From Polyangiales bacterium (GTDB lineage: Bacteria; Myxococcota_A; Polyangia; Polyangiales; Ga0077539), in contig JBGARZ010000011.1 of assembly GCA_044229975.1 (NCBI GenBank), positions 1-64,000 on the forward strand: a stretch of DNA of 64,000 nucleotides, in the 5' to 3' direction. Made by a program: the position numbers and the translations under genes. The first letter of the stretch is position 1. Each line of letters starts with the position of its first letter. This document shows, piece after piece, positions 20,891-64,000 of this stretch. The notes beneath the pieces are model-generated. The model worked only from the letters and a program-made list of their open reading frames with translations, did not search any database and had not been told where the DNA came from.

Positions 20891-20965
20891 TGGCGCCCCC
20901 ACCGGGAATTGAACCCGGGTTCTCCGCGTGACAAGCGGGTATCCGTTCCACTGGATCATGAGGGC
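20891..20965 (-). tRNA. tRNA-Asp(GTC)
   Basis: GCCCTCA...CCCGC-TTGTCAC-GCGGA...CCGGG-TTCAATT-CCCGG-TGGGGGC-G-CCA; full cloverleaf, CCA encoded. Confidence 0.92.
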
Positions 20966-20974
20966 GATCGAGAG

Positions 20975-21048
20975 CGTTCTCGGGAGGACTCGAACCTCCA
21001 ATGACCGGCTTCGTAGACCGGGGGTCTATCCAATTGACCAACGAGAAC
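20975..21048 (-). tRNA. tRNA-Arg(ACG)
   Basis: GTTCTCG/CGAGAAC acceptor; CCGGT-CTACGAA-GCCGG; GGAGG-TTCGAGT-CCTCC. Confidence 0.9.
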
Positions 21049-21066
21049 AACGGACGAAGGCAAAGG

Positions 21067-21139
21067 CGTCCCCAGGGGGGTTCGAACCCCCGTGTCCTGG
21101 CTGAGAACCAGGCATCCTGGGCCACTAGATGATGGGGAC
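21067..21139 (-). tRNA. tRNA-Glu(CTC)
   Basis: GTCCCCA/TGGGGAC acceptor; CCTGG-TTCTCAG-CCAGG; Glu-type D arm. Confidence 0.92.
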
Positions 21140-21165
21140 GTGTCGCATCAGCTCGCGCTGATCGG

Positions 21166-21238
21166 CACCACCGGAGGGACTCGAACCCTCATCAACCGGA
21201 ACGAAACTCCGGTGTCCTGGCCGTTAGACGACGGTGGC
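21166..21238 (-). tRNA. tRNA-Glu(TTC) with atypical anticodon loop
   Basis: GCCACCG/CGGTGGT acceptor; Glu-type D arm; CCGGA-GTTTCGT-TCCGG (G32, G37, T38). Confidence 0.82.
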
Positions 21239-27811: not shown

Positions 27812-27986
27812 GAGCACCCGCCCACGCCCGCGGTGCGCGGACTTACCCGGAGGGACGCACCCGCCCACGTCCGCGAAACTCGGGCGCTCTCGGCGCCGGA
27901 CGGTCCGACGAAGTCCGCGCACCGCTGACGTAGGCGGGTGCGTCCCTTCGGGTAAGTTGGTGCACCGCGGACGTGGGCGGGTGCTC
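27812..27986. repeat. Imperfect ~60-bp inverted repeat (REPIN-like; CGTRGGCGGGTGC units)
   Basis: 27812-27871 vs 27927-27986 are reverse-complementary with few mismatches. Confidence 0.8.
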
Positions 27987-29493: not shown

Positions 29494-29721
29494 GAGCTGG
29501 CATCGGCGGCGTGGAAGACACGAGGCCGCAAGGGCGCAAGGGTCGCAAGGGGTGACGGGCGTTTGAGGTGATTTCAGGTGGAGTGGGGACGAGCAAGAGA
29601 TTGGTGAAGTACGTCGAGGATGACCGTGGACTCACCCGGATGCCCCCTCGGAAACCCCTTCACTCCTTGCGACCCTTGCGCCCTTGCGGCCTCGCGTCTT
29701 CCACACCGCCGATGCCTGCTC
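29494..29721. mobile_element. Non-coding inverted-repeat element sharing its core repeat with the GxxExxY locus
   Basis: ~70-bp arms 29494-29564 / 29652-29721 containing GCCGCAAGGGCGCAAGGGTCGCAAGG, also present at 61612-61638 and (rc) 62239-62265. Confidence 0.75.
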
Positions 29722-60204: not shown

Positions 60205-61569
60205 TCAACGAGGTGTGAAGCGGTAGCCGGTGTTGGGTGCGACGGCGCCCGTGCGGTTGAGGCTGACGAGGCGTCCCGCGGTCTGCTCGAAGGACTCCAG
60301 GCCGATGGTCGCTTCGCCGCCGCGGGAGAAGCTGCTGTTGCGGTTCTCGGAGCAGTAGACGAACTCGATGACGTTGGTGGTCTGGAAGAGGCGCGCCTCG
60401 AAGGACACCGTCGTGGCGCGGTCGCGGTAGAAGCTGACGTTGCTCCAGAGGACGTGGACGACGCGGGAAGGGGACGCGCCGTCGATCCAGAAGTACACGC
60501 CGCCGGACATGGTACCGACGATGAGGTCGTCCCAGAGGGGCGCGACGACGCCGCGCGGGAGCCCGCTGAAGGGGAGGCTGTGGTTGCGCCACGCCGTGTC
60601 GGACGACGGGCTCATGCCGCTCGCAGCGAAGGTGACGAAGCCGTTGGTGTCGTAGGTCAGCCGGTCGACGGATCGCCCGAAGTAGCTGAACGAGAAGCCC
60701 AGCGCCGTGACCGACGAGGCAACGTCGTCTCCGCTGGAGAGCCTCGTGGCGCTGCTCGGAATGGTGCTGCATCGCAGGGTGGTGAGCAGCTCCTGGGTGT
60801 ACGCGACGGAGGGCTCGGCGGCGGTCACGTCGAGGACGAGGTCGAAGGCGCCGGAGGTCGATCCGCTGCTGGAGCGGTAGCCGTCCACGACGAGGTAGTA
60901 GGTGCCCGCGGGGAGGTCGACGGTTCCGGTGGTGGTGGTGGCGTGGTCGAGGCAGGCGACCTCGTCGCGGAAGCGATGGTCGTCGGTCGCCTGCTCGGTG
61001 CAGCTCTGCGTGAGGTAGACCACCGGGACAAACGCCGTTCCGGTCGGACGGGCCGTCCAGGTGAGGCGACTGAAGGCAGGTAGCGTGACGAGGTAGCCGA
61101 CGTCGGCAGCGGCATCGTCGGCCGCGCAGCTCGGGCGGTGGTCGTTGGTGCGCCCGGCGGTGGTGCCGGTGAGCGCGTAGTGACCGAAGCCGGCGACAGT
61201 GGGGACGCCAGTGAGCACGCAGCTCTCAGTGGCGCCGCCGGTGGTCGTCGGGCCGGTGTCGATGGGGGTTGTGTCGGCGGTGATGGGTGGGACGTCGATG
61301 GCGCTGACGTCGATGGAGGCGATGTCCACGAGCGCGACGTCGGGAACGTCGACGGGCGCGGGGACGTCATCGGGGGCGATGACGACGTCCAAGGGGCTCA
61401 CGTCGGGGGCGACGACGGTGACATCGGTGCCCGCGTCGGGAACGTCCTCGGTCAGGGTGTCTGATGGACTGACAGAGTCGGGTGTCGCCCTGAAGTCGGG
61501 GTGTCGCGGCTCGCAGCCGACTGCGAGGTAGCCGACCACCATCCACCTCGCCGCGCGCTTGAGCTCCAT
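60205..61569 (-). CDS. Lipoprotein with PPC-like and NIDO-like domains
   Basis: AVGC lipobox then EPRHP; GTYYLVVDG; LGFSFSYFG...TNGFVTF...VAPLWDDL. Confidence 0.72.
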   Translation of the reverse strand: MELKRAARWMVVGYLAVGCEPRHPDFRATPDSVSPSDTLTEDVPDAGTDVTVVAPDVSPLDVVIAPDDVPAPVDVPDVALVDIASIDVSAIDVPPITADTTPIDTGPTTTGGATESCVLTGVPTVAGFGHYALTGTTAGRTNDHRPSCAADDAAADVGYLVTLPAFSRLTWTARPTGTAFVPVVYLTQSCTEQATDDHRFRDEVACLDHATTTTGTVDLPAGTYYLVVDGYRSSSGSTSGAFDLVLDVTAAEPSVAYTQELLTTLRCSTIPSSATRLSSGDDVASSVTALGFSFSYFGRSVDRLTYDTNGFVTFAASGMSPSSDTAWRNHSLPFSGLPRGVVAPLWDDLIVGTMSGGVYFWIDGASPSRVVHVLWSNVSFYRDRATTVSFEARLFQTTNVIEFVYCSENRNSSFSRGGEATIGLESFEQTAGRLVSLNRTGAVAPNTGYRFTPR

Positions 61570-61596
61570 AGCGCGTGGGACTCTACTGGGCGGCTC

Positions 61597-62283
61597 GTGA
61601 TGGGAGAAGAAGCCGCAAGGGCGCGAGGGTCGCAAGGGAAAGGAGGAAGGGAAAGGAGGAAGGGAAAGGAGGAAGGGAAAGAGGAGGAAAGAAGGGGAGC
61701 ATTGTTAGCGCTGACCCAGCGGCGAATCGAGCGACTCGTCGGCCTCGCCTTGTGCTTCGAGCCGTTGGTTGCGAGCGACGCGCTTCACGCCTCGGAGCAA
61801 CACGGGCACTTGGAAGTTGATGAGAAGGGCGAGCGAGAGTCCCGTCGCCTTGAGGTACGACAGCGCCTGCGCCGTGTGGACGTCGTTGAGGTGCTCAACC
61901 GCCTTGAGTTCAACGACCACGGTCTGTTCGACGAGCAGATCCATCTGTCCCGCGCCGACCCCTTGCCCTTTGTAGTCGACCCGAAAGACCATATGTCTTT
62001 CGAACCTCACGCCCCGCAACCCGAGCTCGATCTCGAGCGCAGCCTGGTACACCGATTCGAGGTAGCCGGGCCCGAGGTGTCGATGCACCTCGACGGCGGC
62101 GATCAACACACGCCTTGCGACCTCGTTCACCCCCAGTGGAGTGTCACGAAACCTCGCTGATGAGCTTGCAACAAGCCCTTCCTGCCCCTCCCGCCCTTCC
62201 TGTCCTTCCTGCCCCTCCCGCCCTTCCTGTCCTTCCTGCCCTTGCGACCCTGGCGCCCTTGCGGCCTCTTCTTCTCTCTTCAC
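61597..62283. mobile_element. Inverted-repeat-bounded GxxExxY element
   Basis: Left GTGA.G.GAGAAGAAG-CCGCAAGGGCGCGAGGGTCGCAAGGG plus (AAGGGAAAGGAGG)x3; the right end is a near reverse complement plus 9-bp pyrimidine repeats. Confidence 0.65.
61705..62130 (-). CDS. GxxExxY protein (PD-(D/E)XK nuclease fold); start uncertain
   Basis: VHRHLGPGYLESVY, DLLVE..VVVELKAV, QALSYLK, LLINF. Confidence 0.9.
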   Translation of the reverse strand: MNEVARRVLIAAVEVHRHLGPGYLESVYQAALEIELGLRGVRFERHMVFRVDYKGQGVGAGQMDLLVEQTVVVELKAVEHLNDVHTAQALSYLKATGLSLALLINFQVPVLLRGVKRVARNQRLEAQGEADESLDSPLGQR

Positions 62284-62434
62284 GTCGCTAGCCCTCCGCC
62301 GCCCCATGGCGCCACCGCCAGCAGCCATCGCAGCGCGCGTGCCACGCATTTTCATCGACAATCAATGCGTTCGCGGGGTGGCGGCGGGTGGCGGCGGGGT
62401 GGCGGCGGCGGGTGGCGATGCACCCGACCACCGC

Positions 62435-64000
62435 TCAGAACGTGTGCGTCCAGCGGCTCCCGGGGATGCGGTTTCCTGCGGCGTTGATGAAGTCCACCGT
62501 GAGCGCGCGCGTCGTCGGGTCGGCGCGCAGCAGCGTGTAGTTGTGGACGTTGTTGACGACCACGGGCCACTGCGAAGCGCGCAGCGAGGGCGGTCCATCA
62601 CGGTTGGCGCCAGCGGGGCCCATGATGACCTCCCAGATGTTGCTCCACGCGCCGGCCGCCTCGACGCGGCACACGCCGCCGAAATGCACATCGCCAGAGA
62701 GCCACACCACCCCGCGGAGGTTGTTGTTGGCGATGTGGTTCAGGATCTCCCGGCGCTGCGAGGCGTAGCCGTTCCAGTTGTCGCTGTCGGCGCCCGCGCG
62801 GTCGACGATGGGCACCGAGTTGACGATGAACTTGAACACACACGGCGAGCTACGCAGCCCCGCCTTCAACCAGTCCATCTGCGCGCGAGAGATGTACGTC
62901 GACGCGCGTGACGCATCCTCCGATCGCGTCGACGGGCGCCGCTCGCTGCGGCAGTCGAGGATGAAGAAGTCCGCGGTGCGCCCCCAGCGGAAGCTGCGCC
63001 AGATGCGGTCGGTGACCGTCGCGTTGCGGCGCGTGGCGCGGTGCTCGAAGAAGGCCTGCCTCGCCGCGGCGAGGCGGGAGGCGGGGAAGGTCTGGGGGTT
63101 CCAGTTGTTGAGCACCTCGTGGTCGTCCCAGGTGAGGTACATGCCGGTCGAGCGGTGCAGCGAGCGCATGCCCGCAGAGGCCCAGTTCTGCTCGTACTTG
63201 GCGCGGTACTGCGCGAGCGTGACGGCGTTGTCGCCGTAGTCCGTGTAGACGTGGTCGCCCGCGTGGATGAAGAAGTCGAGGTCGGTGCGCGAGCCCGCGT
63301 GCTGCAACACCGGAAACGGCCGGTTGGCCTGGTTGGAGCACGACGTCCCGGCGAAGACGATGGGGCTCAGCGCGTCGGCGGCGATGGCGGTCTGCACGCG
63401 CCCCACGAGGCTGCGCCCGGTGGGCCGGCCGACGGCGCCGACGAGGAAGGCGTAGAGGTGCTGCTTGTTGGGACGCAGCCCGTTGACGACGGTGCGGACG
63501 AAGCCCGCGCCCGACGGGGTGACGGCGCCGTCGAAGCGCACCGCCACGATGCGCGTGCCGTCCATCTCCAGCACGCGGAGCACCACCGGCCCGGTGCCGT
63601 CGAAGCGCGTCCAGAAGATCACCGACGAGTCCGTCGCGTCGCCCGCCATCACCCCGATGGGAAACTGCCCCGCCCGCTCGGGTAGCCCACGGAAGTCGGG
63701 GTTGGCCGGCGTCCCCGCGTCGCGCGGAACGTCTCGCGGAACGTCCGCCCCGACATCACGCGGCACATCGACGCGCGCATCCACCGAGGCGTCGCGACCG
63801 GCGTCGGTGCCCGCGTCGAAAGAGGCATCGGCGCCCGCGTCGACGGGGCTCGCGACGTCGGCGACGTCATCGTCGCTCGGGGCGTCTTCGTCGATGGCAG
63901 CGTCGAGGTCTTCGGGGTTGGCGTCGTAGGTCTCGTCGGGCCCGGCGTCCTCCTCGAAGGGGATGTCCTCCTCGGCCGTCTCGCCCGCGCAGCCCACCGC
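62435..64000 (-). CDS. phoD: Alkaline phosphatase D family lipoprotein; 5' end probably off-window
   Basis: GDHVYTD, WDDHEV.NN, LDCRSER, DNWNGY...R, LSGDVH. Confidence 0.9.
   Translation of the reverse strand, partial: AVGCAGETAEEDIPFEEDAGPDETYDANPEDLDAAIDEDAPSDDDVADVASPVDAGADASFDAGTDAGRDASVDARVDVPRDVGADVPRDVPRDAGTPANPDFRGLPERAGQFPIGVMAGDATDSSVIFWTRFDGTGPVVLRVLEMDGTRIVAVRFDGAVTPSGAGFVRTVVNGLRPNKQHLYAFLVGAVGRPTGRSLVGRVQTAIAADALSPIVFAGTSCSNQANRPFPVLQHAGSRTDLDFFIHAGDHVYTDYGDNAVTLAQYRAKYEQNWASAGMRSLHRSTGMYLTWDDHEVLNNWNPQTFPASRLAAARQAFFEHRATRRNATVTDRIWRSFRWGRTADFFILDCRSERRPSTRSEDASRASTYISRAQMDWLKAGLRSSPCVFKFIVNSVPIVDRAGADSDNWNGYASQRREILNHIANNNLRGVVWLSGDVHFGGVCRVEAAGAWSNIWEVIMGPAGANRDGPPSLRASQWPVVVNNVHNYTLLRADPTTRALTVDFINAAGNRIPGSRWTHTF

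Follow-up and report, generated by a model that had tools for sequence, protein, structure and literature searches.

Near the right-hand end of the window (the whole 64,000-nt stretch of DNA analysed here, or 64 kb), a gene of the GxxExxY family (TIGR04256/PF13366; minus strand, 61705-62283) lies between two inverted ends, 61597-61638 (~43 nt) and 62239-62284 (~46 nt), that pair with each other. This bears out an earlier note on the same DNA, which had described ~40-bp inverted ends enclosing such a gene. The product scored 129.4 bits against TIGR04256 (cut-off 35, E = 8e-38) and 128.5 bits against PF13366 (cut-off 22, E = 2e-37), and since both scores exceed the curated cut-offs, we assign it to the GxxExxY/PDDEXK_3 family. 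Exactly one GxxExxY gene was found in the 10-Mb assembly (G000), which is 93% complete. The open reading frame extends to 62361 (218 aa). Because a GGAGG box (62292-62297) stands 8 nt ahead of an in-frame GTG at 62283, this GTG is the probable start, and judging from the sequence, the product is likely a 192-aa protein in which the adjoining repeat arm is translated.

Each inverted end contains a 26-nt core, which we call the arm. The arm on the 3' side of the gene (61612-61637, plus strand) is built from three CGCAAGG-type units, spaced 8 and 9 nt apart, and the arm on the 5' side (62240-62265, minus strand) falls in the reading frame, where it probably encodes a piece of the N-terminus; each differs from the commonest arm form by 1 mismatch. 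The left arm continues outward in a purine-rich extension (61597-61611, plus strand). The outward extension of the right arm (62266-62306, minus strand) resembles the gene-bearing copies of two congeners, G001 and G003, which occupy other sites and in which the 5' flank remains similar for ~40 nt beyond the core. A tandem purine tract of three perfect 13-mers and a partial copy lies 3' of the stop codon (61636-61698, plus strand), and a frame-preserving tract of tandem 9/27-mers (62175-62239, minus strand) is 54 nt longer than its counterpart in G001. A 9-nt period runs across 62166-62264, and its in-frame reading gives GQEGQEGRE twice plus GQEG, much as the note had read it. The note had also taken these mirrored purine tracts as part of the element itself. 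They are indeed present at this locus, but because they are absent in the orthologous elements of G001 and G003, we consider both to be local expansions private to this copy and ruled them out as a family feature. The general family trait is instead a purine bias on the arm strand beside each core.

The predicted structure of the protein (pLDDT 96.7) shows a PD-(D/E)XK core fold with the D...E-x-K arrangement (D141, E151, K153), in agreement with the fold that had been assigned to it previously. In the 218-aa numbering, the family motif is G99-x-x-E102-x-x-Y105, and E102, D141, E151, K153, Q165, and Y169 are conserved in 102-103 of 103 proteins compared. With a dN/dS of 0.13-0.20 among three congeners, the gene and its conserved catalytic residues are under purifying selection, which accords with the nuclease reading proposed below. 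We take the QxxxY element to be a RecB/Cas4-type motif. Structural neighbours, at middling scores, were mostly PD-(D/E)XK nucleases, including Cas4, lambda exonuclease, AddAB, Hjc, and restriction enzymes. The best match, among tied rows, was Cas4 SSO0001 (a middling Z of 7.9, rmsd 3.3, 96 aligned residues), and the best Foldseek E-value for the protein model was 5.5e-3; a sequence search for a solved homologue found none. The PD-(D/E)XK fold hydrolyses DNA and is not known to perform strand transfer on its own. In the portion of a published account that covers PDDEXK_3, the function of the family is listed as unknown and multiple transfers are noted, with no mention there of a repeat (PMC3424549).

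The element is flanked by a gene for a PhoD-like phosphatase (62435-63997) and one for a likely secreted protein without a Pfam hit (60205-61572). The phoD orthologues checked in congeners had different neighbours and no arm. Immediately outside the right arm lies a second repeat (62319-62418), with 14 BLAST hits in the genome and copies in congeners. Elsewhere in the window, we observed a further long hairpin repeat without a CGCAAGG core (27812-27986; 37 BLAST hits in the genome) and four clustered tRNA genes, all on the minus strand (20894-21238).

The arm family across the genome

By allowing up to 5 mismatches, we counted 205 arms in this genome, of which 176 formed 88 inverted pairs and 29 stood singly. 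The arm pattern matched 197 times and the reversed pattern not once, so this abundance is not due to chance. One pair spans 654 bp and bears the gene, and the other 87 are gene-less and span 90-171 bp. Among the latter is the pair at 29525-29690, whose outer arms pair for ~30 nt further and whose interior is related to 7 other copies. The earlier note had singled out a gene-less copy at this position, which is correct as to location, but it is one of 87 rather than a lone companion. The pair adjoins a gene for an Uma2 family putative restriction endonuclease (PF05685, 29753-30190) that has many congener paralogues. A survey of sequencing runs matched 13 DNA runs, at small shares, and listed no RNA run; contigs from the runs, aligned over 26-34 kb of the window, contained no joint across this gene-less copy.

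Using gene predictions from a purpose-built caller (7926 genes, 89% coding), we found that 85 of the 87 gene-less pairs overlap no predicted gene. Conservation in these copies is confined to the 26-nt core. Their interiors fall into groups of 14, 8, 5, 4, 3, 3, and 2, with 48 singletons, and show no resemblance to the gene (mean score of 18.9 vs 17.7 for shuffled sequence). A protein that selects on the core would be expected to leave this pattern, with the core alone conserved and 48 of 87 interiors unique. Within a copy, both arms also tend to carry matching minor variants, in 19 cases at position 6 (5.2 for shuffled partners) and in 26 at position 14 (9.2 shuffled), with kin copies contributing to these counts. 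Beyond the cores, outer flanks pair in a copy-specific manner, reaching a score of at least 8 in 33 of 87 copies compared to 7 of 260 shuffled ones. This outer pairing extends for 0-80 nt and has no common end. A scan for target-site duplications found direct repeats no longer than those of controls. We also considered whether the outer arms were copied from host gene ends, and none of 9 candidates was convincing.

Many arm pairs sit inside other repeats. By loose patterns, about 37 of the 87 gene-less pairs carry outer ends of other families (17 IS630-type, 10 family B, and 10 family C), and 50 of all 88 pairs, including the gene-bearing one, carry none of these. The nesting ends occur also without the core. 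Family A ends match the ends of an element encoding a DDE_3 transposase, present in two copies with identical transposase genes (L238, C32:623276-624811, and C14:131708-132850), one of which adjoins an arm pair; from its domain set and TA ends, we take this element to be IS630-type. Family B, a GCGAAGC-type hairpin, occurs both with the core and in its absence, and sometimes lies within IS630-like ends (C4:288328-288480, C32:170989-171137, and C10:150130-150380), and family C shows direct repeats of 9-11 bp. In a relative, G002, an arm pair within family C ends (L202, ~1000-1220) is inserted in what reads to us as a HAMP-repeat gene, with a duplication of 9-10 bp. Sharp termini and target duplications were seen only in nested subsets, through the ends of other families. 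The near-identical, evidently recent arm subfamilies that we examined were likewise nested within other repeats that have sharper ends, one of these repeats being IS630-type. Because these subfamilies are the nested ones, the latest copying can be explained without the GxxExxY protein, and ordinary transposases may account for the clearest cases of recent copying. Some of the arms have likely spread as passengers in MITEs of ordinary DDE transposases.

Homologous loci, site turnover and co-occurrence

To place the locus among its homologues, we collected 114 loci with a match longer than 90 aa. Relatives and the phylum supplied 35 of these, and the best hits of a pattern scan of GTDB supplied 79, which are therefore biased to one subfamily. 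Eleven were excluded for short flanks, leaving 103, among which are the locus of the window itself and some near-duplicates. An inverted flank was defined as an inverted match with an alignment score of at least 14 between the 250 nt on each side. Of the 103 loci, 73 had such flanks and the other 30 did not; among 243 control window pairs there were 4, and matches in direct orientation numbered 18. Inverted flanks at homologues, which the note had proposed as a check on its reading, are thus widespread. The hosts span many bacterial phyla as well as archaea. Arrays stood on both sides of the gene at 66 loci, where the repeated unit was CRCNRAG in 62, CGCAAGG in 2, and another word in each of two. 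The arm is not always translated in one frame, as the three frames occurred 29, 18, and 19 times over these 66 loci; a constant frame holds in this clade only. As a separate observation, one genome carries three GxxExxY copies with equal scores within 40 kb (L046; G261 C2:9537, 35104, and 45838), and the one copy examined there has no inverted flank.

The repeat type follows the protein tree to some degree. Base 2 of the heptamer changes 10 times on the tree, compared to 19.9 with shuffled labels (minimum 16), and base 5 changes 9 times (15.2 shuffled, minimum 10), while base 4 is near random, with 20 changes (24.1 shuffled, minimum 19). Residue 82 of the protein and base 5 vary together, with T accompanying G in 37 of 37 cases and A accompanying A in 12 of 15. 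An independent-pairs test of co-change between residue and base yielded one usable pair (starred branches) on a poorly resolved tree, a number at which significance is unreachable. Since the tree signal of the repeat type by itself follows from linkage, the co-evolution of repeat and protein that had been proposed as a check appears here as a signal on the tree of the kind that linkage alone would give.

The occupied sites are not fixed, in line with another check from the earlier note. Gene orthologues of ~80% identity occupy a different site in each of G000, G001, and G003. The G001 site is empty in G000, where only 7 nt separate the two adjoining genes; in G001, the orthologues of these two genes enclose a 1.4-kb block made up of a gene-less pair, the pair with the gene, and a small ORF unrelated to them. 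The G003 gene-bearing copy has no 3' arm nearby, and the gene upstream of it is followed by different sequence in G000, G001, G002, and G004. Arms in relatives formed 79 loci, 74 of them paired. Both flanks could be mapped to G000 for 13, all from G005, and all 13 elements are absent from G000; at any single site, gain and loss are indistinguishable, and the junctions are blurred by sequence divergence. In closer genomes, three of five gene-less queries gave a comparable site, and the element was absent at all three. These sites comprised one with family C ends and a 9-10 bp duplication, one with a larger replacement, and one with a single mappable flank. Among the sites compared, none gave a precise filled/empty junction for a non-nested copy.

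Deletion derivatives were found as well. G011 has no intact gene and instead carries four gene-remnant copies on four contigs. The two compared in full share a deletion that fuses the 5' and 3' parts of the gene at a CAAGG microhomology. Gene-less copies formed by internal deletion were thus seen in G011 and partly in G019, and were not detectable in the interiors of G000 copies. The G011 derivatives also sit within sharp 75-bp outer repeats, which occur elsewhere without the core.

Across the phylum, the gene is present in 62 of 401 genomes and RGAG-type arrays in 54. The gene occurs in 27 of the 54 genomes with such arrays at any count, in 19 of 24 with at least 5 on both strands, and in 9 of 9 with at least 20, thresholds that were picked after the table was seen, in a sample where kin are not independent of one another. 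In the 10 related genomes with at least 7 CGCAAGG arms (G000 included), the gene is intact in 3. We searched five gene-negative, arm-bearing relatives for remnants and found them in 2 and none in 3. Neither gene nor remnant was found in G020 (96% complete, 122 arms), and no remnants were found in G002 (88% complete) or G005 (64% complete). A 570-bp arm pair in G020 contains no gene evident by eye, and many of its arms have outer flanks made up of successive 7-nt units (L009, L012, and L014-L016). In G006, the gene adjoins a different repeat word and there are no CGCAAGG arms. The arm units are spaced 9-9 in G001 and G007.

Relation to known systems

The organisation resembles REPIN/RAYT and SRM/Ssn systems, and it is a member of neither. 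As in the parts of the REPIN/RAYT literature consulted (PMC3116915, PMC3733652), one repeat-flanked nuclease gene per genome accompanies many extragenic inverted doublets that have variable spacers and fold into hairpins, with the repeat type tied to the enzyme lineage. Doublets exceed singlets as in REPINs, both in the pairing of arms and in the extragenic position of gene-less pairs. Whereas RAYT is a tyrosine (HUH) transposase, the enzyme here is PD-(D/E)XK; searches of the enclosed gene gave PDDEXK_3 and no HUH/Y1 hit. The arm also differs in being a non-palindromic triple heptamer that folds weakly by itself (-2.5 and -2.7 kcal/mol for single arms) and whose base profile contains neither a GTAG nor a CGTC tag, and the gene sits inside one doublet.

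The likeness to SRM/Ssn (NTS-ssnA-NTS) lies in a tiny single-domain nuclease gene flanked by its own repeat, many dispersed copies, and a broad phylogenetic range; the published account reports at least one SRM flanking ssnA in 71% of cases and SRMs on both sides in 42% (PMC11893778). By contrast, Ssn is described there as a GIY-YIG enzyme that recognises a self-folding hairpin on ssDNA (PMC11893778), whereas the arm here is a periodic sequence whose only pairing is with the partner arm, and the enzyme is a putative nuclease of a different fold. Profile searches found no GIY-YIG domain in the enclosed gene. DDE insertion sequences and MITEs share inverted ends and gene-less copies with this element and, as far as G011 and partly G019 are concerned, internal-deletion derivatives, and some copies are nested in IS630-type ends. 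Still, the element has no DDE transposase, no common terminus, and no excess of target duplications. Intervening sequences of rRNA, which are located in an rRNA gene and act as an RNA stem, were ruled out, as the window contains no rRNA, the neighbours are protein genes, and there is no G-U bias.

In the literature searched, which lay largely outside subscription journals and supplements, we found no account linking GxxExxY, TIGR04256, PF13366, or PDDEXK_3 to a repeat. The repeat-gene system is real and widespread, and apparently undescribed.

Proposed explanation and its alternatives

We propose that the GxxExxY gene and its dispersed arms likely form an undescribed selfish gene-plus-repeat system. 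It is likely that the protein targets the arm. We lean, by a small degree, towards a mechanism in which the PD-(D/E)XK protein would recognise the triple-heptamer arms and nick or cut close to them, after which repair by the host would gradually place copies of arm pairs, some with the gene and some lacking it, at further intergenic positions. The same repair copying could also act between the two arms of one copy. Spread would then proceed by nick-and-repair copying rather than by cut-and-paste, a preference that we base on the ragged ends, the absence of a target-duplication excess, the private variants shared between arms, and a fold not known to perform strand transfer on its own. The earlier note had inferred an autonomous/non-autonomous pair analogous to RAYT/REPIN. 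That organisation is supported by the flanks, the unfixed sites, the tree signal, and the deletion derivatives. Simple transposition is disfavoured by the missing common ends, the lack of a target-duplication excess, the nesting of many pairs inside other repeat ends, and several arm-rich relatives in which no gene was found. More tentatively, and at somewhat less than even confidence, GxxExxY proteins could be the enzymes behind a kind of mobile DNA that is widespread in bacteria and archaea and as yet undescribed, in which a third nuclease chemistry, after HUH RAYT and GIY-YIG Ssn, is paired with a dispersed repeat of its own. Here, a domain of ~115 residues would read the triple heptamer by a residue-to-base code, and spread would occur without a transposase, fixed ends, or target duplications.

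With these results, a common nuclease family of no assigned role gains a specific, directly testable candidate substrate, and an explanation is offered for a class of intergenic repeat that numbers ~200 arms here and, in another genome, 303 matches to the arm pattern. The genome-wide arm count, the deletion derivatives, and the confounding by DDE MITEs are newly established here. If the protein does drive the spread, this would be a route of DNA mobility without a strand-transfer enzyme, and the natural repeat variants would correspond to very small sequence-specific nucleases with differing targets.

The strongest alternative, which we nonetheless consider unlikely, is that the protein is a retained, arm-specific nuclease whose present role, like that of Ssn, is chiefly a cellular one, such as the cleavage of repeat-bearing ssDNA that has entered the cell or been displaced, with the arms having spread otherwise or long ago. 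The repeat-gene-repeat layout and flanking rates like those of ssnA fit such a role, as does a single-copy gene under purifying selection (dN/dS of 0.13-0.20 among three congeners) from a family seen in few plasmid records (8 of 72,556) and in none of 50,697 phage records. Yet the gene stands at differing sites among congeners, is patchily distributed in the phylum, and decays into deletion derivatives, and for these reasons selfish turnover fits better than a retained role.

It is improbable that the gene is simply cargo that ignores the repeat, with the arm pairs acting as terminator-like or mRNA-stabilising hairpins spread by DDE MITEs and recombination. Gene-less pairs are enriched in convergent gaps (30 of 87 vs 366 of 3030, p = 2.7e-8) and depleted in divergent ones, and the majority of arms lie 20-50 nt past a stop codon, which fits this explanation. 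The nested pairs and the existence of gene-less, arm-rich genomes also speak for it. Against this, 50 of the 88 pairs, the gene-bearing one included, lack the ends of other repeats, one triple-heptamer class flanks the gene in many phyla and in archaea, and a plain hairpin has no need of a conserved core sequence.

We regard it as very unlikely that the selfish system proposed above is instead an RNA-level element, with the arms pairing in a transcript that is processed like an intervening sequence, or with the protein acting on an RNA stem. The whole element does fold into a single long stem (with DNA parameters), and copies lie just past stop codons, but on the transcribed strand of 42 co-oriented copies, G-U oppositions (49) did not exceed A-C oppositions (61; p = 0.29). 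The 66 gene-bearing loci gave 94 G-U vs 84 A-C (p = 0.50), though 31 loci lean towards G-U and 16 towards A-C, and no Rfam family was found at either element. Finally, it is very improbable that the protein is a regulator or architectural arm binder that does not cut: the 5' arm at the gene start would permit autoregulation, but nearly all of the 103 proteins (102-103) retain the catalytic D, E, and K.
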